Part shown: piece by piece, positions 8,510 to 48,392 of the stretch
How positions within the stretch are numbered: position 1 is the first letter of the stretch
Layout: each line of letters starts with the position of its first letter
Source of the DNA: an archaeon
GTDB lineage: Archaea > Aenigmatarchaeota > Aenigmatarchaeia > CG10238-14 > SCSR01
DNA: 64,000 nucleotides
Direction: 5' to 3'
NCBI GenBank assembly: GCA_035288545.1
Contig: DATEAB010000045.1
Coordinates: forward strand, 1,329-65,328
Made by a program: the position numbers and the translations under genes
Notes under the pieces: model-generated
Database searches by the model: none
What the model was told of the DNA's origin: nothing
What the model saw: the letters and a program-made list of their open reading frames with translations, nothing else

Positions 8510-8615
8510 AGGTGGGAATTGAACCCACGACCTTCCGCTTACATTCCGCTCGATTTCTCGATGGGCGGGTGCTCTTTGTTGCGTTTTTTCAACGAACCAA
8601 CTGAGCTACTGTGGC
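8504..8615 (-). tRNA. tRNA with apparent insertions in the D-loop (~20 nt) and anticodon region (~19 nt); anticodon not resolved
   Basis: Minus-strand read: GCCACAG-TA-GCTCAGTTGGT[TCGTTGAAAAAACGCAACAA]AGAGC-A-CCCGCCCATCGAGAAATCGAGCGGAATGTAAGCGGA-AGGTC-GTGGGTTCAATTCCCAC-CTGTGGC-T. Acceptor, D stem, T arm and discriminator are canonical. The anticodon arm cannot be folded without removing an insert. Confidence 0.5.
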
Positions 8616-20338: not shown

Positions 20339-20920
20339 TTAAAGCAAAAAGGTTAGCAGCGACACGCCGAGAAGGAAGATCCAGAGCCATGGCTTCCATT
20401 GAAAGACTTTGTTGCCGTCCAGCGGATTGATGGGCAGAAGGTTGAATAACGCAAGATAACTGTTTATTCGCGCTACAAAATCCAAGCCCGGGATTCCGGC
20501 CAGGCCGAAGACAAACGCAAAAAAGATGTTGACGATAGGTCCGACTGCTGATATTATACCTACTTCACTCGGCGTGAGATGCATTTCTCGATAACCCCAA
20601 CGGCCGTAGCGATAGGGCTGAATGACGACAGCGCCTGGTGCGATGAAACGGAATGGAAGCAGAAGCGTGACGAAACCTACTAGAAGTCCTTCAGGCCACA
20701 GCTTGAAGAAGGCGACGGCGTTGAATTTCATCGCCGCAAACTTGTGCGCCAGCTCGTGCAGCAAGAATGCCACAATTACCGTGATAAAGACAAGAAAAAT
20801 GTTTCCGAAATCTGGATATGCGAGGATGATTGTCAGGGAAAAAACTGCAATGATAATGTCTCTTATCTCCGTATATGAAAAAATACCAATGCGCTTTCCA
20901 GTTTCAATTTTCGTTTTCAT
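20339..20920 (-). CDS. Site-2 protease family (M50) intramembrane metalloprotease
   Basis: 193 aa, multi-TM. HELAH (HExxH) sits in a TM helix, and LLPINPLDGNKV supplies the downstream LDG motif. Confidence 0.75.
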   Translation of the reverse strand: MKTKIETGKRIGIFSYTEIRDIIIAVFSLTIILAYPDFGNIFLVFITVIVAFLLHELAHKFAAMKFNAVAFFKLWPEGLLVGFVTLLLPFRFIAPGAVVIQPYRYGRWGYREMHLTPSEVGIISAVGPIVNIFFAFVFGLAGIPGLDFVARINSYLALFNLLPINPLDGNKVFQWKPWLWIFLLGVSLLTFLL

Positions 20921-21843: not shown

Positions 21844-21989
21844 CTTCTTTTTCTTCCGGCTTTCTATATTAATAGCTTTTCCCGAATTGTAAAGCTTTCG
21901 TAGGAATTTTCCTTCATTGATATAAAAGTTTTGTGGAACAGCATTTCACAAATGCTGCACGGACAAAAATCCGCAAAAAGATAAATGTG

Positions 21990-22265
21990 CAGAAGGCGCG
22001 CCGCAAGTGGATACAGACCTCCAGAGCAGTTAACCCGCATATCCTTCTCCATCATGTATCCTTCAAGCATCAAAACAACTAACTTATCCTTGCTCGGTTC
22101 CCCGCCTAGGGAGGTTCGATAATTGCCTGACCCTGTAGGGCATGACTTCTCAGTCGGAAACACGGACTGCGCTACAGGTTTTGCATCGCCTCTTGGCTTC
22201 AGTCGAGCATGTAGGCCATTTCTCGATTAAGGTGAGGCCTAGCCACCCCGCTTAGCCCTCTGCAT
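21990..22265 (-). ncRNA. GC-rich structured RNA, candidate signal recognition particle (7S) RNA
   Basis: The interval has no credible ORF and is locally GC-rich. The minus strand reads, 5' to 3': an Alu-domain-like GGUGGCUAGGCC and CCUGUAGCGCAGUCCG, then a helix-8-like CUAGGCGGGGAACCGAGCAAGGAUAAG (GGAA tetraloop plus AGCA asymmetric loop). The ends can pair (GCAGAG/CUCUGC). Strand and ends are tentative. Confidence 0.35.
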
Positions 22266-25354: not shown

Positions 25355-25807
25355 AAAACTTGTGAAAATTTTCCTGAAAATCTGAAAAAAATTTAAAATT
25401 CTGGAAAATTTCTGCGGAAAAATATTTTTTAAAAAATTTTGTCACCAAATAGTAATTCTTTGTCTCCACCAATGTTTATATACTTGGATTGTTCTTTAGT
25501 AAGACATAGGTGAAGATCAAATGTTTTATCAAATAATTGATCTGACTAATAAATCCTTTGTTTCTCTTCTTCAATGGGATGAGGGAGAGGATGAAAGTGG
25601 CGAAGAGGAAGGATGGGGGGAGGACGAGGAAGAGCTAGGGTTCGAAGACCACGAATGGTGAAACAAAAATACAGTAAGTATCGCAAAAACCGTCAAAAAT
25701 TTCATCAACATCAATTACATCATCAAAACACACTGAAAACATGCTGAAGACCCCCCTTCACTTTTTTGTTTTTTGTTTCCAGAATTTTCTTTTTCTCGCG
25801 AACCGCT

Positions 25808-25851
25808 GTCAGTTCAATGTCAGTTCAATGTCAGTTCAATGTCAGTTCAGT
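25808..25851. repeat. 11-bp direct tandem repeat (gtcagttcaat) x4
   Basis: Read directly: gtcagttcaat gtcagttcaat gtcagttcaat gtcagttcagt. Lies in a non-coding patch of atypical composition. Confidence 0.85.
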
Positions 25852-25942
25852 GAAGTTGTCACTTTGCAAGAACGAAGCTTAAATAGTACATAGAAGTCTT
25901 TATATCCCGACCAAAGTCAAAATTTCATTAGGTGAACAATGA

Positions 25943-26221
25943 ATGGTACTGTTTGAAGGTACTCTAGGACTCGGTGTTGGGTTCCTTCTAGCAGTTGCCT
26001 TTGCTGAGTATGCAAAGTTGAGACACAAGTCGGAGAAAGGTTACTCCTGGTTGGGAGTTTCCGCCGCCTTCTTCCTGTTCTCAGCAGCATTTGCAGCCCC
26101 AGCAGTAGGTTTGTACCTAGGATCGATCACCATCTTACAACAGATATTCGAACTGCTCGGATGGTTGTTCGCTCTCATAGCTGTAATCTTCGTAGCGTAC
26201 GAATCGCTTATGGAGAGATAA
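25943..26221 (+). CDS. Small 3-TM membrane protein (hypothetical)
   Basis: 92 aa made of three hydrophobic helices. No homology recognised. Coding status uncertain. Confidence 0.3.
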   Translation: MVLFEGTLGLGVGFLLAVAFAEYAKLRHKSEKGYSWLGVSAAFFLFSAAFAAPAVGLYLGSITILQQIFELLGWLFALIAVIFVAYESLMER

Positions 26222-26535
26222 GGCAGTAGGAGATAACGGTACAGCAGGGCAGCGCTAGACAGACATTACGTTAACACGTAAAAACCAATACGTTAAAACA
26301 AATCAACAAACGCTACATTAAATGATTAACTGAACAATGGCTTAGGATTTTGTAGCTTTTTTTATTCTTACTTTTACTTTTCCCCTTTTTTCCTTCCTTA
26401 CTTTCTTCATCCTCATTTTGTCACGCTTTTAAGTTTGAAGCTTCATCTATCAATTAATTAACCTAACAACTAACATTTGAACAGCGTTTGACTTGTCGGT
26501 GTGTCGAAGCCTGACGACGTGGAGTCCAGAGTGAA

Positions 26536-26823
26536 GTGCTAGAATTGCAGGGCTTTGAAGGTAGAAAACCGACCCGAGCCAGAAACCTGAAAGTGATAGA
26601 CCATCTTGGCACACTCTATGCTACATTCGACGGCAGCCACATGTGGAAGATGGACAAAGTTGCCTACGGAATCTGGCAGATGTGCGACGGTTCTCGAGAT
26701 TTTGATCAAATCACAGTCGCACTTGCGGCACGCATTGGTCACACTAACGAGGATGTCCGGCCTGTTGTAGAAGAGATTCTTACGGACTTGACAAAAATGA
26801 AGTTCATAGAATGGATAGGATGA
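26536..26823 (+). CDS. PqqD-like protein (RiPP recognition element fold), stand-alone
   Basis: 95 aa. YGIWQMCDGSRDFDQITVALAARIG...DVRPVVEEILTDLTKMKFIEWIG matches the PqqD pattern (aa-IW-L-DG-R----I---L---------DV--fl--L-----I). Confidence 0.6.
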   Translation: MLELQGFEGRKPTRARNLKVIDHLGTLYATFDGSHMWKMDKVAYGIWQMCDGSRDFDQITVALAARIGHTNEDVRPVVEEILTDLTKMKFIEWIG

Positions 26824-26901
26824 ATTTTCCAACTTTCTAATTTCTAACACAATAACTTTATTTACTGCCAAATAGAAAACTCTTTATAGTGCGTTGTAGG
26901 T

Positions 26902-29900
26902 GTGGGGGTTTTGATTAATTCCATAAAAATTTTGTTCTTTATTATTTTTCTGACTGTTATCTTTATAAATTACTTTGCTTTTCCTGTTTTGGCAACAATC
27001 AGTTTGAATGTTTCAGCTTCTCTCACTACGCAGCTAAATAAAAATATAACAATCAAAGGCTCGATAGTAAATACAACTACTTCTGACACGATAGCTGGAA
27101 TAAATGTTACTGCAGTTGTGAATGGGAGTGGCGCTTCTCAAACAACAGGAGCAGACGGAACTTTTCGTTTTAACATAACCGCTCCTAACACTCCCGGAGA
27201 AAAGTTTGTTACTATCACAACAAATTCAAGTTCTCTTCGAACTGAAACAATTCCTATTTTTGCGACCAACTTGACATCAGGAAGCATTTCTTATGTAGGA
27301 AACTTCCCGCCATTTACCAACGGCTCAAACATGACAATTAATATCACTTTGTTTAATGGTACAATACCTTTCGCAAATTATTTTCCCAACGTGAGTATTT
27401 ACAAATCAAATGGAGGAAGAATCTCTTGGGGAATTTACAATTATTCGGCCAGTACTGGCACTGGTGGATTCATCACTTTCAACGTAACAATCCCTGCTAG
27501 TGCGGAAATCGGGCAGTATGCGATTGTTGTCGAGCGTGGTGCACTGTTCACAATTTTCGAGATAAGATCGAACTACATGATGGCAGTCAGCACAATGTCG
27601 ACTGCTGATGAGAGAACGTCGAATTTTGCTCCTAGCGGCACTGTGAATGTTCTTGCAAAAGTCAGGACAACAACTGGAAATCCTACCAGTGCGACAGGCA
27701 TCTCTGCGCTGATAACTCTTCCAAACGGAACTGTGCGAAATATCTCGCTCTCCGTGCATCCGACCCTTACTGGCCAGTACAACAAAACCTTCACAGAGAC
27801 GTCTGCTTCCGGGCAATATCAAGTCGCAATTTATGCAGTTGTCGCTGGCGCTCAGCTCCAAGCCAACACAGTTTTCAGCACAAAAGTTTTTGAGGTGGAT
27901 TTGGAAATGCAGAAGAAGTTCTTCATGGAATGGGGAGGTCAGGCTGCGTTCAAAGCAGGCGGCGTGGTCGCGCTTGACATCGTTCCAATTAATATGACAG
28001 ACGACACCACGATAAACGTAGGCGGGGCGGTATGGCCTGCATGCAACACAACTTATCTCAAGATGGTTGATGTCACTTATCCCAACGGAACCTCCATCAA
28101 CAGCTCCCAACCGATTGTAGGGGTGTCTTTCTCAACAAGCCAGAGCCTGACCGACAGCGTTTGCAAAATCAATTTTACAGCCCCCGCTGTTACTGGCGCT
28201 TACGGATTGAAAGTCAATGTGACGGTCGCAGGGGTGACTGAACAGGCAGAAGGATTTTTCGCAGTTCAGAAAATTTTCCTTAAAGTTTCCCCTGTTTCAG
28301 GACTGGGCGGACAAGAGGATTTCATGTCAGTAGTTTCGCCTGGAGAAAATGTGACCCTTGATATGACGGCGTATAACCTGACAACTGAAGCTCAAATCGA
28401 CGGCACAAGCATTTCAAACATAGTTGCAAAAAGAATCGTTCCTCTTGAATTTGCAACAGGCAGCTCCGAACTGACAACGCTCAATCAGTCAGCCACAACA
28501 GGGAGCAACCCGCAAATACTTGTCCAGATTCCTTCCTCGGTCATGGGGCCTGCGATTGTCGAGATAGAGGCAAGCGTTGGAACTGAGAAAGTCATCGGTA
28601 CTGCTTTCTTCATTTCCAATTATCTTTCAGGATTTCTGTTTCCCGCTTCCGGAATGGGCGGTGAAGGCGGCGGGGATTTTGGCGGCGCGCCTTTCGCCTC
28701 CTGCTCAGGCACTCTTAGCTTCAGGGGAAATGTCAACGAAGTGAAGACAGGGACGGCTGCACAAGGAGTGAGCGTTGTAAGCATCATACAGGCGCGCGAG
28801 GAACTTACAGGCCGCGATGTCAGCGGCATGCTTTCCATTGCCGGCACTACGGCAAGCGACTCGAACGGGCAGATAACCATCAACGTCACATTCAGTCCGA
28901 GCAGCGGATACGGCTTCTCAGGTTTCTATTTCATGATTTTCAACGCAAGCTACAAAGGCAATTCCGCAGGCCTGCCGGCTGGTTTCATGTGCAAGCAACT
29001 GGACTTCTGGCCGACCATTCAGGCGATAGGAACGACACAGGAGAGCTGGCGCGTGTCGCCGACATCAGGAGTCAACGTTACAATTTCAAATGTTGCCAGA
29101 CTGAACGACAGTGCGATAATAACTAACAGGAGCTATCTCACCCTTCCAACAGTTTTCAACTTCAATCCCTCAAAAGGTGGGATGAAAGTTCTTATTCCGC
29201 AAAACATTTCTGCTCTCAACGCGACTTTCGTGCAGAGAGGAAACAACTATACAGCAGTCGACTCAAACTACGTCAGTCTTGCGATTTACCCACAGAACTT
29301 CACTTCGGGCGGCCAGGCTCTCACAGAGTGGCCCAACGGTTTCCTTGATCTCCAGCCGCGCATTACGTCTGTTGATATTGACGGGGCGTCCGATACAGGT
29401 TTCGGCGGGTTCCAGGTCGTCGGCTTCGACGCATGGATTGAGGGATGGGACTGGGGAGCGAAAGGAGCAGGTCAGACTCTCTCTTATGTAGTCGACGTCA
29501 GGGCGAATGTCAGCAAGAACGTGACGAATGCAGCTGGCGAGAATGGTATTGTGCCTGACACTGTTTTCGTACGAACTTCTGCCAGCAACAACATGACAGG
29601 ATTCACTGTCAGGATCGGAAGGCCGTGGGAAGGCGAAATGACGACACTCACAGCAGTCAACGCGACTCTGCTTTCCGACGGATGGAACCATAGCAGCAAC
29701 ACGAGCTTCGAGAGGTGGAACGTGACATTTGTCATTCCGCAGACCACGAAGAAAGGAGAGGCTCAGCTTGTCATTACGGTCAACAATTCTAACGGCCAGG
29801 AAACAGACATCGACCTTTGGTTCACGATAACAAAATACACAGTTATACTTCCCTCGGAGGAAGGTCTTGGATCTCAGCCGTCCTCTCCATTCGACGCGTA

Positions 29901-31416
29901 CTACATTCCCATGGTCGACAATGGCCAGTGCAGTGGGGGATGCGGCGGCAATACCAGTGCATACGGCTGGAACATGACATACATCAATTATACGTACGGC
30001 ATAACCTCTCGCTCGACTGGATGGAACCCATCATGGGCGGGCAAAGTCTGCGTGAAGAACCAGTTCAACGTGACTAGATATGTGCAAGCCAACCAGCTCG
30101 CCATCACGATCAATAGCAGCGTGCGCGTGGCAGTGGTCGACAACCGAACCGCTGGAGTGTACGACACTGTCATACTCAACAACACCGAGGGCAACATAAC
30201 AATTTTGAACACAACAGACATCAATTCAAGGAAGTACGGCTCGAGCGCGCTCTACTTGTGGTCGATAGAGGACTGCGGATATGTGAAGTTTGTCAACGCC
30301 TCGTCAGGCGCGCTGCCTAGCTCAGGCAACTGGGGCGGCTCTCATCAAGCCAACACCAACTTCACCATTCCTTACGTAATCACTCTTGCCAACACGCCTC
30401 AAGCGTCAGTCAACGTCAGCATAAGGTCAATTGGCAAGCAGGACGACCGCGGTTTCGGATTTGAGGGCAAGATGACAGTAGGGGACACGCCAAGAGGGAA
30501 CTACACCTCTGTGCCGGTCAACGCGACGACTGATACGAACGGCATCGCGTTTGTCGGAGTGAATGTCTCGGCAAGCGGGCGCCTTGTTGCTTTCTGGAAG
30601 ATCGACACCACAGCAGGCGACACAGACATAGCCACGATGAGCAGCGCTACATTTTTCGAGTCGAAGGCTTTCAGCACGAACGGCTACAGCGTTTTCGACC
30701 TTCCGATGAGATATGTCAATCTCACTTATGTCGCAAATTCCGGAGGCGGATACCTGGGGGCGTTCGCGGCAGCAAGCGAGCCGTGGGTGTACGCTGCGAA
30801 CGTTACAGAAACGAATGCGAATGATTTTGTCCGCGACGGCACTGCTGCGACTTATTACATTGTCTATGCTCCTAACAGGAACGCCACGAAGACATCAACA
30901 TCAACAGACCTTTCCGGCTCGGCTGCTGACTACCTCAACGCCACAACCAGCATCGGTGGAACGAGTCTGGCAGTGGCATGGATGCATCCCAACTCTTCTG
31001 CGACCGGCTCTCTACAGTTCGTATTTTTCCAGACAAGTCCGCAGGGAAACAGGCCGACGACCGTCACCACAGGGACTGAAAACATAACTGTTGCGGTGTG
31101 TGGGGAAGGATATGAAAAGCCGAACGCGCGGCCGAAGGAAGGGGCTGCAGTCAGGCTGACTGTGACAGACTGGTCTGCATTCCCGCCTTCAACTAAGAAC
31201 TTGCAGATGTATGAGATGCAGAACCACACGGCCATCGCTCTGGGCAGCTCGGCAGTGACAGGACCGAAGGGATGCGCTCTCCTCAACGTCGGCCCAGGCC
31301 AGCTCAGCACGTGGCCGTCAGCAAGCGCAGGCAAGCCTCCAGTGTTCATCGAAGGAACAGTCACCTCGGGCAGCTTGGTTGAGAGCGTGTACGTCACAGA
31401 TGTTTTCAGGATTTAA
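26902..31416 (+). CDS. Giant secreted cell-surface protein (1504 aa) rich in Asn/Thr/Ser and N-glycosylation sequons
   Basis: N-terminal signal/TM MGVLINSIKILFFIIFLTVIFINYFAFPVLA. Dozens of N-x-S/T sequons (NIT, NVT, NGS, NAT...) run throughout. No C-terminal TM segment. Probable S-layer or adhesin-type glycoprotein. Confidence 0.6.
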   Translation: MGVLINSIKILFFIIFLTVIFINYFAFPVLATISLNVSASLTTQLNKNITIKGSIVNTTTSDTIAGINVTAVVNGSGASQTTGADGTFRFNITAPNTPGEKFVTITTNSSSLRTETIPIFATNLTSGSISYVGNFPPFTNGSNMTINITLFNGTIPFANYFPNVSIYKSNGGRISWGIYNYSASTGTGGFITFNVTIPASAEIGQYAIVVERGALFTIFEIRSNYMMAVSTMSTADERTSNFAPSGTVNVLAKVRTTTGNPTSATGISALITLPNGTVRNISLSVHPTLTGQYNKTFTETSASGQYQVAIYAVVAGAQLQANTVFSTKVFEVDLEMQKKFFMEWGGQAAFKAGGVVALDIVPINMTDDTTINVGGAVWPACNTTYLKMVDVTYPNGTSINSSQPIVGVSFSTSQSLTDSVCKINFTAPAVTGAYGLKVNVTVAGVTEQAEGFFAVQKIFLKVSPVSGLGGQEDFMSVVSPGENVTLDMTAYNLTTEAQIDGTSISNIVAKRIVPLEFATGSSELTTLNQSATTGSNPQILVQIPSSVMGPAIVEIEASVGTEKVIGTAFFISNYLSGFLFPASGMGGEGGGDFGGAPFASCSGTLSFRGNVNEVKTGTAAQGVSVVSIIQAREELTGRDVSGMLSIAGTTASDSNGQITINVTFSPSSGYGFSGFYFMIFNASYKGNSAGLPAGFMCKQLDFWPTIQAIGTTQESWRVSPTSGVNVTISNVARLNDSAIITNRSYLTLPTVFNFNPSKGGMKVLIPQNISALNATFVQRGNNYTAVDSNYVSLAIYPQNFTSGGQALTEWPNGFLDLQPRITSVDIDGASDTGFGGFQVVGFDAWIEGWDWGAKGAGQTLSYVVDVRANVSKNVTNAAGENGIVPDTVFVRTSASNNMTGFTVRIGRPWEGEMTTLTAVNATLLSDGWNHSSNTSFERWNVTFVIPQTTKKGEAQLVITVNNSNGQETDIDLWFTITKYTVILPSEEGLGSQPSSPFDAYYIPMVDNGQCSGGCGGNTSAYGWNMTYINYTYGITSRSTGWNPSWAGKVCVKNQFNVTRYVQANQLAITINSSVRVAVVDNRTAGVYDTVILNNTEGNITILNTTDINSRKYGSSALYLWSIEDCGYVKFVNASSGALPSSGNWGGSHQANTNFTIPYVITLANTPQASVNVSIRSIGKQDDRGFGFEGKMTVGDTPRGNYTSVPVNATTDTNGIAFVGVNVSASGRLVAFWKIDTTAGDTDIATMSSATFFESKAFSTNGYSVFDLPMRYVNLTYVANSGGGYLGAFAAASEPWVYAANVTETNANDFVRDGTAATYYIVYAPNRNATKTSTSTDLSGSAADYLNATTSIGGTSLAVAWMHPNSSATGSLQFVFFQTSPQGNRPTTVTTGTENITVAVCGEGYEKPNARPKEGAAVRLTVTDWSAFPPSTKNLQMYEMQNHTAIALGSSAVTGPKGCALLNVGPGQLSTWPSASAGKPPVFIEGTVTSGSLVESVYVTDVFRI

Positions 31417-31502: not shown

Positions 31503-32918
31503 ATGGCAGGAATTGCAAACGCAAACACGGCAAAAAAGAAAAGTAACTTGAAAAATAATTTCATTTGCACTCTGGCATTTGTTTCAATGGCATTTATTTC
31601 GTTTTCAATCTTGTTTTCAATCTTATTACCGCAACAAGTTTTTGCATCAGTGACAGAAGTCACGACATCAGCTTCTGCCAGCAGAGCGACGACTGGAACG
31701 AGCGTGACGATAACAGCTTCGGTAACGGCAAGTTCGACCGAAACAACTTCAGTTAATTTTGTCTCAACCCCTTCCGGGATAACAGTCAGCGATCCTGCGG
31801 GCGGTTCCTATTCCTCAGTCGCTGTGTCCACCTCTCCCACGACTAAGACATTCACAATTTCAGCTGGCAGCGCCAACACTTACACTTATTACGTGCAGGC
31901 AGGAAGCGTTCAGTCAACTTCTGCAACAATTGTTTTCGTTGATCCTTCTGCCATTGTAGTCACAGGTGATCCGAGTTCGACCACTCAAACTAGCGGCAGC
32001 GAGTTTGACATTGAAGTTAACATGGAAAATAGTCAGTCTTCCTCGGTTACAACTTCTTATTCTCTCAATCTTCCTTCAGGTTATTCCGTTACTGCAGGCG
32101 ATGCATCTTCAGATACAATAACCCTTGGGCCAAATTCTATTGTGCAGGTGGCATGGACAATAAAAGTTGGCTCTGCATCAGGAACTATTACTTTTAAAGT
32201 TGGAAGCAATTCAAACGCGTTTTCCACTTCTGTTACTTGTAGTGATTGCGTAACAACTTCTCCGTCCTCCGTAACTGCTGAATTAAAAGCAAGTGCTTCA
32301 GTAATAGGTTCACCATACAACAGAACATTCTTTTCAATCGCTGCTGAAACGATAAAACTTATTCCTGAAACAGATTTGTCAAATACCAATTCAAGGTTTA
32401 CAGAAATATCGTTTGCAGTTAAGGAAAGAGTTACAGACGTTGTATTTTTTGTACAAGGATTTGGTTATCTTGTTAAGCCGAGTGATGCCCCGTCCGTTGA
32501 TCCAGGAAAAGTTTATCGATACATAAAAATTTTAACAACTAATCTCCCTGATGAAAAAATTAAAAACGCCACAGTAAAATTCAAAGTTGAGAAAGCATGG
32601 TTTACTGAAGAAAAAGTCGATGCTTCTACAATCGCGCTTTACCGTTATGTGAATGGAAAATGGGACAAACTGTCGACAGTTAAACTGACTGAGGATGCTA
32701 ACTTTATTTACTACCGCTCTACAATTCCAGGATTTTCATATTTCACAATCGCAGGAGAAGCCCCAACAACAACAGCAACACAACCTCAAGAAACTCAAAC
32801 TACGACAACTACACTGCCGACAGGAGTAACATTTCCAAGTGAAATAATAATTGGAATAATTATAATTTTTGTAATCGTTGTTGCTGTTCTACTGTTCATG
32901 CGAAAAAATAAAAAGTAA
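31503..32918 (+). CDS. Secreted Thr/Ser-rich surface protein with C-terminal Thr-rich linker, TM helix and basic tail (archaeosortase/PGF-CTERM-like anchor architecture)
   Basis: 471 aa. N-terminal hydrophobic signal. C-terminus TTTATQPQETQTTTTTLPTGVTFPSEIIIGIIIIFVIVVAVLLFMRKNKK. Confidence 0.55.
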   Translation: MAGIANANTAKKKSNLKNNFICTLAFVSMAFISFSILFSILLPQQVFASVTEVTTSASASRATTGTSVTITASVTASSTETTSVNFVSTPSGITVSDPAGGSYSSVAVSTSPTTKTFTISAGSANTYTYYVQAGSVQSTSATIVFVDPSAIVVTGDPSSTTQTSGSEFDIEVNMENSQSSSVTTSYSLNLPSGYSVTAGDASSDTITLGPNSIVQVAWTIKVGSASGTITFKVGSNSNAFSTSVTCSDCVTTSPSSVTAELKASASVIGSPYNRTFFSIAAETIKLIPETDLSNTNSRFTEISFAVKERVTDVVFFVQGFGYLVKPSDAPSVDPGKVYRYIKILTTNLPDEKIKNATVKFKVEKAWFTEEKVDASTIALYRYVNGKWDKLSTVKLTEDANFIYYRSTIPGFSYFTIAGEAPTTTATQPQETQTTTTTLPTGVTFPSEIIIGIIIIFVIVVAVLLFMRKNKK

Positions 32919-35384: not shown

Positions 35385-35642
35385 ATGAACGACGAGAACC
35401 ACTTCAAGGAAAGGATAGAGGAAATTTTAGCGAAGCATCCAGAAGGTTTATCTATAGCCGAAATTTCTCGACTTCTTGGCGCGCATAGACACACAGTTAC
35501 CAAATATATCCAATTTCTAATGGGTGCTGGAGTAATTTATCAACGCGATCTCGGCACTGTGAAATTGCATTACTTAGCAAGCAAACTCCCCGAGAAAGAA
35601 AAGCTGCTTCTTGAAAAATTAAACAGGCGGGGTAAAAAATGA
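35385..35642 (+). CDS. Small winged-HTH transcriptional regulator
   Basis: 85 aa. LSIAEISRLLGAHRHTVTKYIQFLMGAGVIYQRDLGTVKLHY is an HTH plus wing. Stop overlaps the start of the giant gene (ATGA). Confidence 0.6.
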   Translation: MNDENHFKERIEEILAKHPEGLSIAEISRLLGAHRHTVTKYIQFLMGAGVIYQRDLGTVKLHYLASKLPEKEKLLLEKLNRRGKK

Positions 35643-38600
35643 AAGTTAATAAAATTATTGCTAATAGAATTATTCTTCTTGCTGCAGTCTTCATCTCATT
35701 TTCATTAATGGGAATTTTTGTTAGTTTAATTCTCTTTGCCGAACCTGCTAAAGCAGAAGTAAGAGTTTGGAGATACAATGCTACTAATGCAAGTCTTTTT
35801 TCCGTGTTTAATAAAAGTGATGATGACACGACAACTCCACCTGCTTGGACTTCAGGATGGGACGGATCAAACGTTAGTGCTAGTTATTATGCAAACGTTT
35901 TAGGTGCTCAAGGCACTGGTATTAACGTTACTTCAGGTGGTCAGAATGACGAACCTTGGGTGAGATTTAATGTAACTATCATTCAAAACAAGTCGCAAAT
36001 TGTTTGGGTGCATGTCTCATTGACGCAGAGGAAAAATTCTTTGGCAGATGGAGGCGAAGATTGCACTTATATTATGGCTAATTATACTTCCTCTGGAGGT
36101 ACGGGACAGTGGTTTAAATTTGCCTCCGATGTCACAGGCATAACAGATACACAAAGATCCTTTAATCTTTCACGTCTGACTGACTCTGATCAGTTTGAAA
36201 ATATTACGGATGGTTATGCAACAGGAAAAAATCTACAAGTCGGTAATCTTGTAATAAGAGCAAACGGTATTAATGAAGATGCTGATGAAGGATGTGTTGT
36301 TACAAACGCTAGCGTACATGTTGGATATGACGACACTGCGCCGATATGGAGCAATGCAACGAACAATTTCACGTACGCCTATCCGAGCATAAAAACTGTT
36401 GCTGCCATGAGAGGTGAACTTATTAACATTTCTGCAAACGTGACCGATAACTACGGCGTGTTTACAGCATGGCTTTTGACAAACGAAACTGGTGGAGACA
36501 GAAACTACACGTACGACCAGCTTGCAAATTCTTCAAACTACACGATAAGAATTTTGGGTGGAGGGTCGATAATAGACCAAGCTCATAACACAACTACTGA
36601 AGGTGCGATGGTTAACTGGACTTGGCAAAACATGACAGGCGCCCCACGTGCAATCAAATGGCATATTTTTGTTAACGACACAGCAAACAACACGAACGGA
36701 ACTACTAACGGCGCGAGCGGAATCGCCGATATAGGAAACTTCACGATGTGGGGATGGGCAAACGTTACTCCTCCTAACTGGCTAAGTTCACAAATGGTGC
36801 CTGCGTCTGCAACTCCAGGCAATGTAGTTTACATACAAGTCAATGTGAGTGACGTGAACTTGACATGGCTAGAGCCAATAAATAGTTACAACGTAACTTT
36901 CTTTTACCGCCAAGAACCAGGAAATTATGTTTCACTTGGAGCCAACTGGACAAATTCTTCAGGAATTGCTGGATTTTACTGGGACACTACTGGCTTGTCA
37001 GGTGGAAGATATTTCCCTATGGCAAACATAACTCACAATGCAACTCTTTTCTACAACACAACTTATGTTCACAATAGCACAAACGGGACTATCGATCTTG
37101 CGGCAGCAGCTGTTGTTAACTACGGTAATGGTACGCTTCAAGTAGGCGTCAGCTCGAGTACAGATAGAGCACAAACTGTGAAAAGAGCACCGATCATCAA
37201 TCTTGTACAGAATCCGATAACCGCCCAAATAGTTGGCCTTTTCAAGTCATTAACAAATGCAATAAACGCCCTGACAAGCATACCTGCAATTTTTGCGCCT
37301 CTAAGACTTTCAATCATATCACCAATTTTGTCCACTCCAATTTCTAACTTTTTCACACAAGTGAAATCAATAGCTCAAGCCATAACTTCAAATTTCGTTT
37401 CTTCAAATCTCGGATATATTTCAAGATCAATAGCAAACGCAATAACAACTTCTCCTTTAACTGCAAGAATAGTTTCCTTAATAAAAATTATAACATCTCC
37501 ATTTGTTTTTGCATTTCAAACCATTGCTGGAAAAGTTTTGCAATTTCAAACATCACTCACATTAAGCGTGACGTCAACCGCTTCAAGAATATTTACAGGA
37601 GTCAGACCGATATCGAATGCAATTACATTTTCTACAATAACTGCCAGAATAACGAATTTCGGCAGAAGCCTGATTAACGCGTTATCATTTAACACAATTG
37701 CAACAAGAACTGCATCGTTCTTCAGAACAATCTCTCAGCCATTTACATTTACTACTCAAGTAACGGGCGTGTTCGCGCAGGGCGTTCAAGTTATTAACAG
37801 AGCTGTGGAACTGGCACTTTCAATAACCAATACAGCAACAAGAATTTTCACAGCGGTAACATTTCCAACACAGCAGCTTTCTTTCACAACATTAGTGCAG
37901 AGAATAACATTGCTAAACAAAGCTTTAACCAACACACTTTCATTTAACGCTCTAGCAATTAGATCAGCAACGTTTCTAAGAATTGCATCTCAATCATCCA
38001 CCTTCTTAACAAACGTTACAACTGCAATAACTATACTCACGTCACGAGTTGCTACTTTAACGATTTCTATGATAAACACAGCAACAAGAATTTTCACAGC
38101 GGTAACATTTCCAACACAGCAGCTTTCTTTCACAACATTAGTGCAGAGAATAACATTGCTAAACAAAGCTTTAACTAACGCAATATCATTTAACACAATT
38201 TCTTCCAGAATTGCGATATTTTCTCGTCAAGTTTCCCAACCCTTTGTTTTCAGTTTCGATCTTTTCACTAGAGTAATTGTTGGAGGAATTGCAGAAAGAA
38301 CTGCTGCTTTGCAAATATCATTAAGTAATTCGGCATCAGCTGTTTTAACTGCAGCACGTTTTCCAACATCAGCAATAACTACAAACACAATAGTATTAAG
38401 AACGCAACTTCTTTTCAAAGCACTTTCACAAACTCTAAACTTCTCAACAATATCGGCAAGAATACTCTCAACAACGAGAACAGTCTTCACAAACTTAACA
38501 TTCTTAACTTCGAGCATTAGGACAAGAATAGTACCAAGAGTAACAACTGCAGCGATTACGTTCTCTAACGCAATTGAAAAATCATTATTATTTGTAAGAC

Positions 38601-40153
38601 CGATAACAGCGCAAATAACTTTTGCTCAAAATGCAATAAAGCAACTTTCCTTCTTTAGAACAATCACTCAAACTATTAATTTAAATGACTTGGTTATAAG
38701 AAGTCAGCCATTTTTGAGAATTGTCACAGGAACTTTCAGATTTAATTTCGGAGCAACTGCTGTAAATCAAACTGGAACCACCACTACCACAACATCCTCT
38801 GCTGGTCCAGGCCCAGCACCAAGTGCAGGCAGTGGAGCAGGCAGTGGAGCAGGCGGTGGTGCAGCCGCTGCCCCAGGAATTCCTATCTCGATACTAGCAC
38901 CACCACCGTCATTCATTCCAACCCCAACGGTTGCAATTGACTTTACACAAATAGAAGTGCTGCAGGAAGTAGTTCCGGATCAAGCTCAAAACATATCGTT
39001 TGAAATTAAGAACAAAGTCAACACGACTCTGGGCAATGTTACTGTCACTTTCAGTGGAGTGCCTGAAGATTGGATTAAAGAAAAACTTGTTGGCAAGAGT
39101 CTTAATCCAAATGAAAAAACAGAATTCGAAATCCCCGTATCGCCATCTCGAGGCACAGGGAGTGGGGATTATCGTGTGGATATTAGTGTAAAAGCCGGAG
39201 GAGTCGTCGATAAAGGATTTTTCATAATTCGTGTCAAACCTAACGCAGGAGAAACCAACGCACCTTCTGTGACAAGGTCAGTTGTGGTGAACAGTGAGGA
39301 GAAAAAGACAACCTTCACATTAAATGTTGTAAATGTGAAAGGAACAGACACAGTAGAAGTGCAAGAAGATATACCAAAAACAATTGCGAACAGCACAAAG
39401 GAAATATTTTTTGACACTCCGCCGACAAAGATAATAAAGGACGATCCGATTGTCGAATGGCAACTCAAAAATTTCAAGAAAGGAGAGAGCAGGATCATCA
39501 AATATTCTGTTCAAAAAATTTTGGTAGATTACGCCCCGTATGTTTACTTCCCATTGAAGCAATTTAGCATATCTTCCAAATCAACATTAGAAAACTTCAA
39601 GTTGCTACTGTTTGACATTCCACCCTTCTATTCGGGACATGCGTCAATTGTTACGTTAAGAATTGAAAACTCAGATTCAAAGTCCCACAACTTCAGCTTC
39701 GCAATGGGACTTCCGGAAAAATGGAGCGTACAGCCGCAGCAGATAAACGAAATTATTGGTGACAACGAGCAAAGGGAATACAAGCTCTCTGTTTATGCTC
39801 CTTCGAGCGAACCTTCTGGAATTCGCATCATTCAGGCTCAATATGCCTGGGATGATTCAGCTGTAATAAGAGAGTATAGTGTGATTGTTTCACAAATAAT
39901 TTCATTTGACACCATAATCTACATCACCATTGTAATAATTGTAGTATCGGCAGCATATTTTGCAATAAAATCCTATATATCTTATAGAGGAACTCCAATG
40001 GAAACCTTACGAAAACTGAGAGCAATAGTAAAAAGCAGGACACCGATTCATCTAGCGCCTCATGAGCATTCCAAACAATACAGTGGCATTTTTTACGACG
40101 CGCTGTATCATTCAAAACATCTGTCGAAAAACAAAAAGGAGAATAAGTTATGA
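35639..40153 (+). CDS. Giant cell-surface protein (1504 aa) with N-terminal signal/TM, N-glycosylation sequon-rich ectodomain, internal tandem repeats, Gly/Ala/Pro linker and C-terminal TM anchor
   Basis: N-terminus MKVNKIIANRIILLAAVFISFSLMGIFVSLILFAEPAKA. Degenerate ~35-40-aa repeats span about aa 520-1010, including two exact 100-nt DNA copies. Linker GPGPAPSAGSGAGSGAGGGAAAAPG. C-terminal TM IIYITIVIIVVSAAYFAIKSYI. Confidence 0.6.
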   Translation: MKVNKIIANRIILLAAVFISFSLMGIFVSLILFAEPAKAEVRVWRYNATNASLFSVFNKSDDDTTTPPAWTSGWDGSNVSASYYANVLGAQGTGINVTSGGQNDEPWVRFNVTIIQNKSQIVWVHVSLTQRKNSLADGGEDCTYIMANYTSSGGTGQWFKFASDVTGITDTQRSFNLSRLTDSDQFENITDGYATGKNLQVGNLVIRANGINEDADEGCVVTNASVHVGYDDTAPIWSNATNNFTYAYPSIKTVAAMRGELINISANVTDNYGVFTAWLLTNETGGDRNYTYDQLANSSNYTIRILGGGSIIDQAHNTTTEGAMVNWTWQNMTGAPRAIKWHIFVNDTANNTNGTTNGASGIADIGNFTMWGWANVTPPNWLSSQMVPASATPGNVVYIQVNVSDVNLTWLEPINSYNVTFFYRQEPGNYVSLGANWTNSSGIAGFYWDTTGLSGGRYFPMANITHNATLFYNTTYVHNSTNGTIDLAAAAVVNYGNGTLQVGVSSSTDRAQTVKRAPIINLVQNPITAQIVGLFKSLTNAINALTSIPAIFAPLRLSIISPILSTPISNFFTQVKSIAQAITSNFVSSNLGYISRSIANAITTSPLTARIVSLIKIITSPFVFAFQTIAGKVLQFQTSLTLSVTSTASRIFTGVRPISNAITFSTITARITNFGRSLINALSFNTIATRTASFFRTISQPFTFTTQVTGVFAQGVQVINRAVELALSITNTATRIFTAVTFPTQQLSFTTLVQRITLLNKALTNTLSFNALAIRSATFLRIASQSSTFLTNVTTAITILTSRVATLTISMINTATRIFTAVTFPTQQLSFTTLVQRITLLNKALTNAISFNTISSRIAIFSRQVSQPFVFSFDLFTRVIVGGIAERTAALQISLSNSASAVLTAARFPTSAITTNTIVLRTQLLFKALSQTLNFSTISARILSTTRTVFTNLTFLTSSIRTRIVPRVTTAAITFSNAIEKSLLFVRPITAQITFAQNAIKQLSFFRTITQTINLNDLVIRSQPFLRIVTGTFRFNFGATAVNQTGTTTTTTSSAGPGPAPSAGSGAGSGAGGGAAAAPGIPISILAPPPSFIPTPTVAIDFTQIEVLQEVVPDQAQNISFEIKNKVNTTLGNVTVTFSGVPEDWIKEKLVGKSLNPNEKTEFEIPVSPSRGTGSGDYRVDISVKAGGVVDKGFFIIRVKPNAGETNAPSVTRSVVVNSEEKKTTFTLNVVNVKGTDTVEVQEDIPKTIANSTKEIFFDTPPTKIIKDDPIVEWQLKNFKKGESRIIKYSVQKILVDYAPYVYFPLKQFSISSKSTLENFKLLLFDIPPFYSGHASIVTLRIENSDSKSHNFSFAMGLPEKWSVQPQQINEIIGDNEQREYKLSVYAPSSEPSGIRIIQAQYAWDDSAVIREYSVIVSQIISFDTIIYITIVIIVVSAAYFAIKSYISYRGTPMETLRKLRAIVKSRTPIHLAPHEHSKQYSGIFYDALYHSKHLSKNKKENKL
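37200..38700 (+). repeat. Intragenic tandem repeat array (degenerate ~105-125-nt units; two 100-nt copies identical at 37829 and 38078)
   Basis: The string aatacagcaacaagaattttcacagcggtaacatttccaacacagcagctttctttcacaacattagtgcagagaataacattgctaaacaaagctttaac occurs twice, 249 nt apart. Flanking units share the protein pattern ...T(A/I)(T/S)RI..F.R.(I/V)SQPF.F... Confidence 0.7.
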
Positions 40154-41511: not shown

Positions 41512-42537
41512 GTGGGAAAGGTAATCGGAGTTTTTTCAGGAAAAGGTGGAGTTGGAAAGACGACACTCGTTGCTAATTTGGCAACTTCTCTGACGAAGAA
41601 CTTTAATAAGAAAGTCGTTGTCGTTGACAGTAATTTTTCGACAAGCCATCTCGGATTGCATTTTGGTTTGTATGAAGAGCCGAAAGTAACTCTCAGGGAC
41701 GTTATTCTTGAAAATGAGTCGTTGGTTTCAGCATTTTACATTCATCCATCCACAGGAGTGCGATTGATTCCCGCGCCCATCAGTGGTAGTCTTGACGAAG
41801 TAGTCGTGAATGGACTCGCAAATGTGGTCGAACAGCTCAAAGAAGACAACGACATTGTTATTCTTGATGCTGCGCCAGGATTAGGAAGAGAAGTTATTAC
41901 TACGATGAAATCGATTGATGAAGCCTTGATTATTGCGACTCCTGATATTCCTTCCATCACGGATGCACTCAAAACAACAAATCTAATAAAAAAAGTTAAC
42001 GACAAAATAAATATTTCTGGTGTGATAGTGAATAGAGTCAGAAATGAAAAGTATGAGCTGACGAGAAAGGAAATAGAATCTGCGTGCAATACAAATGTTG
42101 TAACTCACATACCAGAAGATTCAAAAGTTCCTGAGTCGATTGCAAAAGGGGTACCACTTATAGAGCTCCATCCCTATTCAAAAGCGAGTGTTGCTTTTGG
42201 CAGACTCGCAGCAGCAATGGTTGGTCAGACTTATGAGCCCAGAAGTTTTGTTTACGCTTTAATGAAACTTTTAGGAATTGTAAAAGAAGGGTATGTTAAG
42301 ATACCGCCGAGAATTGAAAGGCAACAGAGAGTAAAGAAAGTGCGATTGAAAAAAGACGAAGAAGAGAAACAAACAAAACAACAAAAAGAAAAAGGAAAAG
42401 GGAGAGAAAAGGAAGATGAAATGGAAGACGTAAAAAAATTACATGAAGAAGTTGAAGAATCAATAAAGAGTGACATAAAGAAAAGATTAGCGATGAAGAT
42501 AAAAGAAAAATTGAAGGAAAAGGGAGTTGGGGAATGA
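41512..42537 (+). CDS. MinD/ParA-family ATPase (TadZ/CpaE-like) with K/E-rich C-terminal tail
   Basis: GTG start 8 nt after GGGGGTAGGA. Deviant Walker A GKGGVGKTT at residues 10-18. ...IVILDAAPGLG is the Walker B region. Last ~70 aa are K/E-rich and low-complexity. Confidence 0.7.
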   Translation: MGKVIGVFSGKGGVGKTTLVANLATSLTKNFNKKVVVVDSNFSTSHLGLHFGLYEEPKVTLRDVILENESLVSAFYIHPSTGVRLIPAPISGSLDEVVVNGLANVVEQLKEDNDIVILDAAPGLGREVITTMKSIDEALIIATPDIPSITDALKTTNLIKKVNDKINISGVIVNRVRNEKYELTRKEIESACNTNVVTHIPEDSKVPESIAKGVPLIELHPYSKASVAFGRLAAAMVGQTYEPRSFVYALMKLLGIVKEGYVKIPPRIERQQRVKKVRLKKDEEEKQTKQQKEKGKGREKEDEMEDVKKLHEEVEESIKSDIKKRLAMKIKEKLKEKGVGE

Positions 42538-42927
42538 ATGACGCTTAAACAATCTGAGAAGGATGAACTTATAGAAGAACTTTTGGATGCAGTCGCCGAG
42601 CAGGTTTCCGATTTGCTTGCAAGCTCTAGCTCAGTAAAAATTAGGGGAATAAATTCTTATACTGATAAATATCTCGACAATATAATCGAAATTAAACAGA
42701 GAATTTCTGCACTAGAGACGAAAACAGAAAAAAGACTTGAAGACTTTGAAATAATTGTTAACGATTTGGAGAAACAACTTAATGAAAAGTTTCATTCGGT
42801 ACATAACGAAAGCGAGCAAGAGTACTTCAGACTCACAGATCAAATAGCGAATTTACGTGCGGCGGCCATAAAGTTAAGCAATGAGATAAAGGAAATAAAA
42901 ATTCAACTCGCTCTGCGAAGGACTTAA
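42538..42927 (+). CDS. Coiled-coil protein (hypothetical)
   Basis: 129 aa, heptad-rich (LEKQLNEK..., IKEIKIQL). Begins 1 nt after the stop of the ATPase gene. Confidence 0.35.
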   Translation: MTLKQSEKDELIEELLDAVAEQVSDLLASSSSVKIRGINSYTDKYLDNIIEIKQRISALETKTEKRLEDFEIIVNDLEKQLNEKFHSVHNESEQEYFRLTDQIANLRAAAIKLSNEIKEIKIQLALRRT

Positions 42928-42969
42928 TAAAATATTTTTACTTTATAATGCAAAACTAATTCTAATATT

Positions 42970-43377
42970 ATGAAAATTGAGAAGGCGCAAGCAGCTCTTG
43001 AATACTTGATGATAACTTCGATCGCGCTCGCAGTAATAATTCCAGTTTTTTACTACTCCTTCTTCTACTCCAGCGGTTCTGTGAATTATTCCCAGGCTCT
43101 GGACGCTGTCAACGCGATTGGAAAAGGAGCTGATTACGTTTATTCACTTGGCGTCGGGAGCAGGACAAGAATCTTGGTTTCAATCCCCAGCAACGTGATT
43201 AATTACACAATTTCAACCAAAGCTATTACATATCAAATACGCTCATCATCGGGCGCAACTTCATCGATCACAGCATTCACAAAGGCAAACATAACTGGAA
43301 CCCTTCCAACAAATCCAGGCAATTATTACATTTCCCTAAACATGACAGAACAAGGTGTTGTAATATCAGTGTCGTGA
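42970..43377 (+). CDS. Type IV pilin-like protein with class III signal peptide
   Basis: MKIEKAQAALEYLMITSIALAVIIPVFYY: basic N-region, A-Q, conserved E at +5, then a hydrophobic helix. This is the archaeal prepilin peptidase substrate pattern (QxALEYLM). Confidence 0.6.
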   Translation: MKIEKAQAALEYLMITSIALAVIIPVFYYSFFYSSGSVNYSQALDAVNAIGKGADYVYSLGVGSRTRILVSIPSNVINYTISTKAITYQIRSSSGATSSITAFTKANITGTLPTNPGNYYISLNMTEQGVVISVS

Positions 43378-45685: not shown

Positions 45686-45710
45686 AAGGAGAAAATAGAA
45701 AGGGATTGAA

Positions 45711-46739: not shown

Positions 46740-46769
46740 TTTTGAAAGGCATGCAACAAGTGAATAGTT

Positions 46770-48329: not shown

Positions 48330-48392
48330 TCAAAGAACAGTCGAGGAATAGTCAAAGAACAGTTAGGTCAGAAAAAATAGGAGTTGAAATAA

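Follow-up and report, generated by a model that had tools for sequence, protein, structure and literature searches.

RiPP-recognition elements (RREs) are small modules that hold a brief segment of a second polypeptide by taking it up as an extra beta-strand. In lasso-peptide biosynthesis, the RRE protein B1 passes the precursor on to a distinct protease. Similar folds occur in the methyltransferases PKMT1 and PKMT2 of Rickettsia, which modify the large surface protein OmpB. Searches for RiPP natural-product clusters of any class use RRE and PqqD domains as markers. Here we compare with these systems a PqqD-like protein encoded in a stretch of archaeal DNA of 64,000 nucleotides (referred to below as the window).

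The PqqD protein and its subfamily

The gene at 26536-26823 (forward strand) encodes a discrete protein of 95 aa and starts with a GTG codon, aligned with the ATG of the orthologues. The product matches the Pfam PqqD family PF05402 with E=2e-9 and 38.1 bits, the curated cut-off being 23.4, and a match to the same family is precomputed for 26 of 26 close homologues. The CDG motif typical of the PqqD family is present, and the score against the equivalog model TIGR03859 (27.9 bits) falls below the cut-off of 46. In the AlphaFold2 model (pLDDT 85.3), strands at residues 19-23, 26-30 and 37-39 precede helices at 41-49, 56-67 and 71-87, which is the arrangement of an RRE, a three-stranded beta-sheet followed by three helices. 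The top Foldseek matches of the model in the PDB are RREs, including leader-peptide-bound ones, with TM scores of 0.66-0.77; the best is leader-bound TbiB1 (5v1v, TM 0.72/0.77), the NMR structure of PqqD (5sxy) aligns with TM 0.71, and further best matches are the PbtF RRE (8t19) and lasso B1 (6jx3). A sequence search of the PDB with the family profile gave marginal matches only, to PqqD entries (E=0.25-0.35), and the subfamily is therefore recognised through Pfam and the fold, not through sequence similarity to PDB entries. The original prediction of a stand-alone PqqD/RRE fold is borne out by the Pfam score, the confident model and the structural matches. As judged from sequence and model, the product is a genuine stand-alone RRE-fold protein with predicted peptide binding.

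The subfamily is narrow, strongly conserved, single-domain and seen almost only in Aenigmatarchaeota (DPANN). We found 26 close homologues; a search of 1.84 billion proteins gave only 13 representatives (50% identity) at E<1e-10, and the subfamily was recovered in 24 distinct lineages. Sixteen of the 17 genome matches are labelled Aenigmatarchaeota or 'uncultured archaeon', the remaining one Candidatus Anstonellales. In an alignment of 16 sequences the mean column identity is 68%; W37-K38 on the modelled beta3 and P76, I81, L82 and L85 on alpha3 are among the invariant residues, and the basic N-terminus KKPxKAKNLK is conserved. The genomes of these DPANN archaea measure roughly 0.8-0.9 Mb. Four weak HMM matches to multi-domain or giant proteins (P0056, P0061, P0120 and P0126) carry Pfam cadherin, HEAT, OTU and similar repeats and were discarded as spurious or irrelevant. 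A hairpin in the conserved 5' leader of the PqqD gene was also rejected, its arms not being complementary across lineages and the leader being absent in L035.

Partner enzymes and the adjacent giant protein

The PqqD protein is an orphan and is not part of any recognisable RiPP gene cluster. Pfam and NCBIfam searches of the larger ORFs over all 64 kb detected no YcaO, SPASM, lanthipeptide, lasso B2/C or ATP-grasp enzyme, and the precomputed Pfam tables of the relatives and of representatives of the remaining clades (24 lineages, where annotated) list no RiPP enzymes, so that neither the window nor the related loci with annotation have a tailoring enzyme adjoining the RRE gene, as originally noted for its vicinity. 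The window likewise has none of pqqA, pqqB, pqqC and pqqE of the PQQ pathway and, by Pfam, neither Transglut_core3 nor Asn_synthase genes, the partners of lasso B1. A transglutaminase-like gene lying 1.7 kb from PqqD in L020 was dismissed as a candidate lasso B2, being a singleton with a signal peptide and without homologue in any other locus.

The sole radical-SAM gene of the window, at 53896-54903 (forward strand), encodes an AmmeMemoRadiSam-type homologue (TIGR04337, 225 bits, cut-off 220). It is indeed 27 kb from PqqD and has lost its cluster motif, as originally noted: CxxxCxxC is absent, and GDNFPTT stands where relatives have GCNFRCQFC. The motif is also absent in L035/36 and is intact in L003, L005 and L017; the L037 homologue keeps only two of the three cluster cysteines. 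The window's homologue is missing the SPASM domain, and the NCBIfam matches of its family are mainly to glycyl-radical-activase families. AMMECR1 was not found in the window, and no Memo domain was matched among the ORFs scanned. The homologue at 53896-54903 is unlikely to be the enzyme partner of the RRE in this genome. Literature searches on AmmeMemoRadiSam, and on PqqD in connection with DPANN or with archaeal pili, returned nothing relevant.

Downstream of PqqD, at 26902-31416 on the forward strand, lies the gene of a secreted, sequon-rich protein of 1504 aa with 66 N-X-S/T sequons, a hydrophobic signal-like N-terminal segment and only sub-threshold Ig-like Pfam matches. A tblastn search found it in no other locus except L034, where the DNA is 100% identical. 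The following gene (31503-32918, forward strand) encodes a PGF-pre-PGF-domain protein of 471 aa (TIGR04213, E=1.5e-28) whose C-terminal hydrophobic stretch and basic tail form a membrane anchor; it too has no homologue in the other loci. Together the two genes look like a lineage-specific insertion: in L008, the closest syntenic relative, PqqD runs directly into the genes that lie past the insertion in the window. By pattern match, the giant gene has a promoter-like element of its own, AAATAG-N7-TTTATA at 26870-26888 (forward strand), 47 nt past the PqqD stop codon; the two possible start codons, GTG at 26902 and TTG at 26911, follow it after 14-23 nt. The originally noted pairing of PqqD with this glycoprotein does not survive the comparison, which indicates that the two are not functionally tied and that their adjacency is a recent accident. 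The wider suggestion of co-occurrence with giant surface proteins holds in part. PqqD is usually found among surface-protein, wHTH, MinD and pilus genes, and in 10 of 24 lineages an ORF of 1000 aa or more is encoded less than 10 kb from it, many of the remaining lineages being represented by short contigs. Homology between the two 1504-aa proteins of the window (the second is described below) was ruled out (BLASTP E=1.2).

Two small upstream genes and the function of the RRE

The region 25360-26530, originally described as non-coding, holds two conserved genes with promoter-like and terminator-like sequence. A search for short precursor-like ORFs, as had been suggested for this region, yielded a conserved candidate at 25521-25661 (forward strand), which encodes a highly acidic micro-protein of 46 aa, MFYQIIDLTNKSFVSLLQWDEGEDESGEEEGWGEDEEELGFEDHEW. 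Several features mark it as a real gene: a conserved TATA box, Shine-Dalgarno-like site and ATG, and a family of 13 members of 36-60 aa. Among five aligned orthologues all indels are multiples of 3 nt. Third codon positions account for 55% of the nucleotide differences (269 vs 106 and 111). Its promoter-like element (AAATAG...TTTATA, 25447-25480, forward strand) is near-invariant in five lineages, in which CCAAATAGTAATTC, TTTATATACTT and GGTGAAGATCAAATG of this region hardly vary, and a conserved GGTGA Shine-Dalgarno-like site lies between the element and the ATG. The window has 5 matches to the composite motif AAATAG-N-TTTATA where 0.17 are expected, an enrichment. The sequence AAATAGTA has only two copies in the window, in the promoters of the two small genes; as a shared operator in its own right it was rejected, since 36% of shuffles give at least two copies and only the composite motif is enriched. 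Between the two genes, at 25807-25849, Tandem Repeats Finder reports 3.9 copies of an 11-nt tandem repeat, TGTCAGTTCAA, with 100% matches, whereas the aligned upstream regions of L011 and L008 have a single related stretch only.

The second gene, at 25943-26221 (forward strand), encodes TM92, a protein of 92 aa with three predicted transmembrane helices, which has 25 homologues (51-98% identity), no Pfam family, and its own TATA-like and GGTGA elements. The order micro-protein, TM92, PqqD is found in seven lineages (the window, L011, L008, L001, L012, L030 and L035), with TM92 directly 5' of PqqD in every one; the micro-protein gene lies 1 kb upstream of PqqD. Both small genes are, by all these sequence features, real and syntenic with PqqD. 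This synteny is weak evidence of function, because the housekeeping genes beside the triad (ADP-forming acetyl-CoA synthetase alpha, aminotransferase and Lon_C) are equally syntenic in close relatives. The genes downstream of PqqD vary across the triad lineages (the giant gene, c9, M50, MinD or ECF-like). The M50 gene encodes a minimal site-2-protease-like metalloprotease of 193 aa (Pfam Peptidase_M50, E=2e-7); in the window it is at 20339-20920 on the reverse strand, 6 kb upstream of PqqD, and in L001, L012 and L030 it directly follows PqqD. The AAATAG motif common to the micro-protein and TM92 genes is lacking from PqqD, each of the three genes having its own promoter-like element.

Our preferred, still tentative explanation is that the PqqD protein is an orphan peptide-binding adaptor and that, in this genome, the acidic micro-protein is its most probable client. 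The hydrophobic N-terminal part of the micro-protein, which ends in a hydrophobic-x-hydrophobic-acidic motif (LLQWDE in the window, FDLE or FDFE in relatives), would bind in the beta3/alpha3 cleft of the RRE, while the acidic EEGWGEDEEELGF tail would remain exposed. The complex would act at the membrane with TM92 and might be joined by the minimal M50 protease, in the way that lasso B1 hands its precursor to a protease. This motif is similar to recognition sequences published for RREs, FxLD/LxLD among them (PMC12710340). Also in favour of the explanation, L037 has no PqqD within 8 kb, and its peptide has the acidic part without the hydrophobic N-terminal stretch. The motif is short and could arise by chance. 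Against the explanation stand the 17 of 24 lineages, in clades B, C and D, in which neither the peptide nor TM92 is found within 10 kb and PqqD is instead paired with a wHTH protein, the separate promoter-like elements of the three genes, and the adjacency of M50 in only three of the seven triad lineages. In RiPP precursors conservation usually resides in the leader, which counts against the micro-protein, as its most conserved part is the acidic C-terminus. A minimal RRE system kept by ultra-small DPANN genomes without any tailoring enzyme, in which the RRE would escort the conserved, extremely acidic micro-protein of 29-60 aa with its EEGWGEDEEELGF tail to a small membrane partner within a surface or host-contact apparatus, seems to us rather improbable; in a variant of the escort reading, the micro-protein would be the missing substrate of the uncharacterised AmmeMemoRadiSam system.

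The RRE may instead work with the winged-helix protein c1 and cell-surface genes (giant adhesin-like and CARDB/NPCBM_assoc proteins, a MinD/TadZ-like ATPase and a Tad-like pilus), either as the peptide-sensing partner of a regulator or as a chaperone gripping an N- or C-terminal segment of secreted proteins, an alternative that we hold to be less likely. The c1 family (64-97 aa in the 17 lineages) is the commonest neighbour of PqqD and lies within 700 bp of it in 17 of 24 lineages, convergently in 16, with ends overlapping or abutting in the ORF calls, and co-directionally in L006; the pair is kept in these two orientations while the outer flanks differ among clades B, C and D. Paralogues of c1 stand directly upstream of giant or surface-protein genes. 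In the window, the gene of an 85-aa c1 protein (35385-35642, forward strand; HTH_IclR, RPA_C and other wHTH Pfam matches) overlaps by 4 nt the start of the gene of the second 1504-aa surface protein (35639-40153, forward strand; NPCBM_assoc, E=7.4e-10), which is homologous to the giants of L006 and L008 and forms with c1 the counterpart of the c1-giant pair there. A MinD-like gene lies within 10 kb of PqqD in 15 of 24 lineages, a clade C block of secreted or anchored proteins around PqqD (c10-c7-c3-c4-c5 | PqqD | c1 | c6) stays tight in 12 loci, and the window has a Tad-like pilus locus at 41.5-50.3 kb. However, the c1 and PqqD genes are mostly convergent, and convergent genes are not co-transcribed. 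The c1 family is multi-copy (up to three per 20 kb) and marks surface-gene regions generally, so its proximity to PqqD may reflect the region only; the chance background is presumably high because surface genes fill much of these small genomes. In the window c1 is 8.8 kb from PqqD, in L035 none is found within 8 kb, and we know of no RRE that acts on Sec, pilin or S-layer substrates.

The same wHTH-rich neighbourhood, with the small proteins c1 and c7, could also be cited for a re-use of the fold as a winged-helix nucleic-acid-binding regulator that has lost peptide binding, as could the conserved basic N-terminus and the fact that the RRE fold is a variant of the winged helix-turn-helix. This seems very doubtful to us: the 12 K/R against 14 D/E give a net charge near -2, residues of beta3 and alpha3 are among the invariant ones, and the best-scoring structural matches are all peptide-binding RREs or RRE domains, with no DNA-binding wHTH protein among them. 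That the protein is an ordinary RiPP chaperone with its enzyme gene at some other site, AmmeMemoRadiSam (radical SAM, AMMECR1, Memo) being the obvious candidate and the micro-protein its substrate, is improbable as well. It would account for the presence, at 2.4-4 kb from PqqD, of the radical SAM homologue in clade B (L003, L005, L014, L015 and L017; CxxxCxxC intact) and in L035, for the placing of TM92, PqqD and the radical SAM gene within 5.7 kb in L035/36, where the acidic peptide gene lies 44 nt upstream of AMMECR1, and for the name 'PqqD family peptide modification chaperone' given to the relatives by NCBI. The loss of all three cluster cysteines from the distant homologue of the window, as in L035/36, while PqqD stays strongly conserved argues against it, as do the failure to find AMMECR1 and Memo in the window, the lack of any radical SAM gene in the vicinity of PqqD in clades C and D, and the predominance of glycyl-radical-activase matches in the enzyme family, for which we know of no described use of an RRE. 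Finally, the PqqD protein as a specific partner of the adjacent giant protein, binding for instance its signal or pro-peptide, is hardly credible and is largely refuted by comparison. The two genes are immediate neighbours on one strand with 78 nt between them, and in relatives giant secreted proteins are often encoded close to PqqD; yet those giants belong to unrelated families, PqqD is conserved in all loci while the giant and the next gene have no homologue in the others, L008 lacks the insertion, and the giant gene has its own TATA-like element.

Relation to known systems

Since no tailoring enzyme was found near the genes of this strongly conserved, single-domain RRE subfamily, genome miners should not count such matches as RiPP clusters. 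The orphan adaptor raises the possibility of a non-biosynthetic, peptide-escorting role of the RRE fold in DPANN cell-envelope biology; were the escort reading true, the RiPP recognition fold would have a non-biosynthetic use in core archaeal cell biology. Two small genes, those of the acidic micro-protein and TM92, are recovered from supposed non-coding DNA, and if the function proves ordinary, the gain is no more than an improved annotation of Aenigmatarchaeota genomes.

Among the known systems, lasso B1 proteins (TbiB1, 5v1v/5v1u; 6jx3) are similar to the PqqD protein in size (about 85-95 aa) and fold, and their delivery of a peptide to a protease is the analogy on which the model proposed for the RRE and the M50 protease is built. 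In contrast to lasso systems, the window and the annotated related loci have no transglutaminase-like B2 or Asn-synthetase-like C, the sequence identity to B1 is only 13-14%, and the candidate peptide does not contain the YxxP motif of lasso leaders. With PqqD of the PQQ pathway (PF05402; TIGR03859; 5sxy, 3g2b) the protein has in common the Pfam family, the fold and the CDG motif, but it scores below the equivalog level, no pqq genes accompany it, and the radical SAM homologue has neither SPASM nor the SAM cluster. With the AmmeMemoRadiSam system (TIGR04337, AMMECR1, Memo) the resemblance is one of gene order, its radical SAM member lying 2.4-4 kb from PqqD in two clades and AMMECR1 directly following the acidic peptide gene in L035/36, whereas in the window the distance is 27 kb and the motif is gone. 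The structural matches also include the RRE-like winged-helix domains of the Rickettsia PKMT1/2 and M. tuberculosis Rv2067c methyltransferases. These domains are fused to a catalytic domain, while that of the window stands alone with no methyltransferase adjacent; they demonstrate that substrates of the fold can be proteins instead of RiPPs.

An orphan RRE of a narrow archaeal subfamily

The ORF at 26536-26823(+), whose GTG start aligns with the ATG (MLEGLE…) of its orthologues, encodes a 95-aa protein that matches PqqD (PF05402) in Pfam with E=2e-9 and a score of 38.1 bits (gathering score 23.4), and that falls below the cut-offs of the pathway-specific NCBIfam models (27.9 versus 46 for PQQ PqqD, 21 versus 100 for GeoRSP). 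The AlphaFold2 model, built from 16 homologues (mean pLDDT 85.3), has strands at residues 11-14, 19-23, 26-30, 37-39, and finally 91-94, with helices 41-49, 56-67, and 71-87 between the last two strands. When this model was compared with the PDB using Foldseek, RiPP recognition elements (RREs) ranked first: the best match was TbiB1 with leader peptide (5v1v, TM 0.72/0.77), further ones were the PqqD NMR structure 5sxy (0.71), the PbtF RRE 8t19, and lasso B1 6jx3, and RRE domains of cyanobactin, sactipeptide, and lanthipeptide enzymes came after these. Since RREs lead the structural matches, the assignment of the protein as a discrete RRE, the PqqD/RRE pattern of the original prediction, is solid. 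The reported absence of RiPP enzymes near the gene extends to the whole 64 kb, as nothing resembling a tailoring enzyme was found among the larger ORFs run through Pfam or NCBIfam; the protein is an orphan.

In a search of 5.8 billion proteins, 26 close homologues were found, 87-108 aa long; those few that bear a name originate from Aenigmatarchaeota MAGs. Among 1.84 billion cluster representatives, only 13 matched the family profile at E<1e-10 (48-137 aa, at least 87 aa in all but one fragment), weaker matches being generic PqqD proteins. A scan in which each GTDB species was represented by a single genome found 17 loci with the RRE gene, titled Aenigmatarchaeota (14), 'uncultured archaeon' (two), and Candidatus Anstonellales (one); in total, 24 distinct lineages (sequences more than 2% apart) were obtained. 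The protein is strongly conserved, with a mean column identity of 68%, and its invariant residues include W37-K38 in modelled beta3 and P76, I81, L82, and L85 in alpha3; in known RREs these two elements make up the peptide cleft.

The giant glycoprotein and other genes of the window

Directly after the RRE gene lies giant1 (26902-31416(+), 1504 aa; 1501 aa from the JGI start, TTG at 26911). Its N-terminus is hydrophobic, it contains 66 N-X-S/T sequons, and its only Pfam hits are Ig-like matches below threshold. The next gene (31503-32918; TIGR04213, E=1.5e-28) encodes a C-terminally anchored protein with a PGF-pre-PGF domain. The suggested pairing of the RRE with this glycoprotein did not hold up. 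Tblastn against the related loci searched found no homologue of either gene outside the window, leaving aside locus L034, which carries both and whose DNA is 100% identical to the window and therefore belongs to the same genome. In L008, with a PqqD 79% identical to that of the window, PqqD runs directly into c9, c8, c26 (NUMOD3), the winged-helix gene c1, and a giant protein, the series that in the window follows giant1 and the PGF gene, at 33.0-40.2 kb. Moreover, giant1 is preceded by a TATA-like element of its own (AAATAG-N7-TTTATA, 26870-26888), and its G+C of 0.51-0.54, versus roughly 0.36-0.47 on both sides, is consistent with recent acquisition or composition bias. Thus giant1 is a recent neighbour of PqqD and the adjacency is accidental. 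The second giant protein (35639-40153(+)) is also 1504 aa by longest-ORF call, and BLASTP found no homology between the two (E=1.2).

The window opens with a housekeeping region (0-22 kb: Suf, NMD3, aIF1A, topoisomerase VI, tRNA-intron endonuclease at 14006-14578, S17e, DUF63, MJ0043_C, an M50-like protease, Lon_C, and the archaeal SRP RNA at 21990-22262(-), 111.8 bits), followed by an aminotransferase and the ADP-forming acetyl-CoA synthetase alpha subunit (ACD-alpha) at 22.7-25.4 kb and surface proteins at 26.9-41.4 kb. A Tad-like type IV pilus locus (41512-50284(+)) comprises a MinD/TadZ-like ATPase, a CBS protein, a T2SSE ATPase, two T2SSF membrane proteins, five small ORFs of 129-170 aa without a Pfam match, and one further 316-aa ORF. 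From 53.9 kb onward come a radical-SAM homologue, a DUF7343 wHTH protein, an S-layer protein (S_layer_C), and a GT2 glycosyltransferase. The 99-aa ORF 21864-22163, overlapping the SRP RNA, is probably spurious. Two tRNA genes found by Rfam and not reported by ARAGORN, at 8504-8615(-) (112 nt) and 62210-62330(+) (121 nt), probably contain introns. A free-standing LAGLIDADG ORF lies at 51037-51873. Relatives differ in which housekeeping gene is interrupted by an intein or LAGLIDADG domain: ACD-alpha, the MJ0043_C protein, and probably the radical SAM gene, a 796-aa ORF in L015 (L030 7180-9918; L001 11040-13433; L037 1918-4263; L015 5280-7670).

A conserved acidic micro-protein upstream

The search for short precursor-like ORFs upstream of PqqD turned up a conserved coding candidate at 25521-25661(+), which is, judging from aligned orthologues, a real gene: the TATA box (TTTATATA), GGTGA site, and ATG are nearly invariant, lengths differ by multiples of three, and 269 of the 486 pairwise nucleotide differences fall at codon position 3. 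The 13 family members share the pattern M..Q.I..(Q/F)W(D/E)…EEGWGEDEEELGF, with more diverged versions of 29-32 aa in L035/36 and L037. The order ACD-alpha, acidic ORF, TM92 (25943-26221(+), a protein with three predicted transmembrane helices, 25 homologues, and no matching Pfam family), PqqD recurs in seven lineages (the window, L011, L008, L001, L012, L030, and L035), AMMECR1 and a flavin-reductase gene intervening between acidic ORF and TM92 in L035/36. The genes after PqqD vary: giant1, a convergent MinD, c9, or an M50 or ECF-like gene. In L035 (6416-7146) and L036 (6384-7146) the micro-protein gene lies 44-67 nt upstream of AMMECR1, and TM92, PqqD, and the radical SAM homologue follow within 5 kb.

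The composite motif AAATAG-N4-24-TTTATA occurs five times in the window against 0.17 expected (25447, 25881, 26870, and 56737 on the plus strand, 51662 on the minus strand). Four of the copies immediately precede the genes for the acidic micro-protein, TM92, giant1, and the S-layer protein, and envelope genes may have this upstream promoter element in common. Between the micro-protein and TM92 genes, at 25807-25849, an 11-nt unit (TGTCAGTTCAA) is repeated perfectly in tandem (3.9 copies); the aligned upstream regions of L011 and L008 contain only one related stretch.

Possible roles of the RRE

Our favoured, though tentative, reading from sequence is that the RRE is a peptide-binding adaptor that, in this genome, would grip the acidic micro-protein as its client. 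RREs bind short peptides encoded nearby, and no other ORF in the neighbourhood is short, conserved, and clearly coding. At the junction of its hydrophobic head and acidic tail lies a hydrophobic-x-hydrophobic-acidic motif (LQWD, FDLE, FDFE, AWDE) of the same general form as recognition sequences in the literature, FxLD/LxLD among them (PMC12710340). The triad also persists while the genes downstream of PqqD change, and the acidic peptide of L037, where no PqqD is in view, has lost the hydrophobic head. Against this count the close relationship of the triad lineages, in which synteny is conserved in general, the separate promoters of the three genes, and the absence of the peptide gene nearby in most lineages.

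Indeed, 17 lineages (clades B, C, and D) have neither the micro-protein nor the TM92 gene within 10 kb of PqqD, and all have c1, encoding a 64-97-aa winged-helix protein, within 700 bp, convergent in 16 (ends overlapping or abutting by ORF calls) and co-directional in L006. The main rival reading, which we consider somewhat less likely than the favoured one, has the RRE linked to c1 and to the surrounding surface-protein and pilus genes. Paralogues of c1 immediately precede genes for giant or surface proteins (that of the window, 35385-35642, shares 4 nt with the second 1504-aa gene); besides PqqD, the clade C block (c10-c7-c3-c4-c5, PqqD, c1, c6) encodes secreted or anchored Ig-like proteins and small wHTH proteins; and a MinD-like gene is found within 10 kb of PqqD in 15/24 lineages. 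One MAG, JAWBNW01, carries the whole c5-c4-c3, PqqD, c1, c6 block twice on different scaffolds (L021 and L029), which points to either a duplicated block or a bin of mixed strains. It is less likely here that the RRE acts as a conventional chaperone for the AmmeMemoRadiSam-type radical SAM homologue (53896-54903(+); TIGR04337, 225 bits), as the enzyme has decayed in the window lineage and PqqD has not. The distance between this homologue and PqqD is 2.4-4 kb in clade B and L035, and clade B retains an intact cluster motif (L003 6483-7490). As suspected, the window copy lacks CxxxCxxC (…IPGDNFPTT… versus …AGCNFRCQFC… in relatives); the motif was lost by substitution plus a short deletion there and in L035/36, and L037 keeps only two cluster cysteines (L035 11084-12070; L037 9956-10954), which looks like lineage-specific decay into a pseudo-enzyme. 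Beside this gene, in all clades showing it, lies c22 (100 aa, 53327-53629(-) in the window), which matched no Pfam family; its C-terminus (…KIKEEQDKAMEGFGSIFG in the window, …EEENKALEGFGGIFG in relatives) resembles the C-terminal tail by which the archaeal ribosomal stalk protein aP1 binds factors.

The RRE fold and the PqqD family are already known. We know of no earlier description of a conserved RRE subfamily in DPANN archaea that is enzyme-less and has an acidic micro-protein as candidate client, and our literature search found none. If the RRE is such an adaptor, it could possibly serve the minimal M50 protease encoded next after PqqD in three relatives, for which the B1 to B2 hand-off of lasso peptide systems provides a precedent of an RRE serving a protease.
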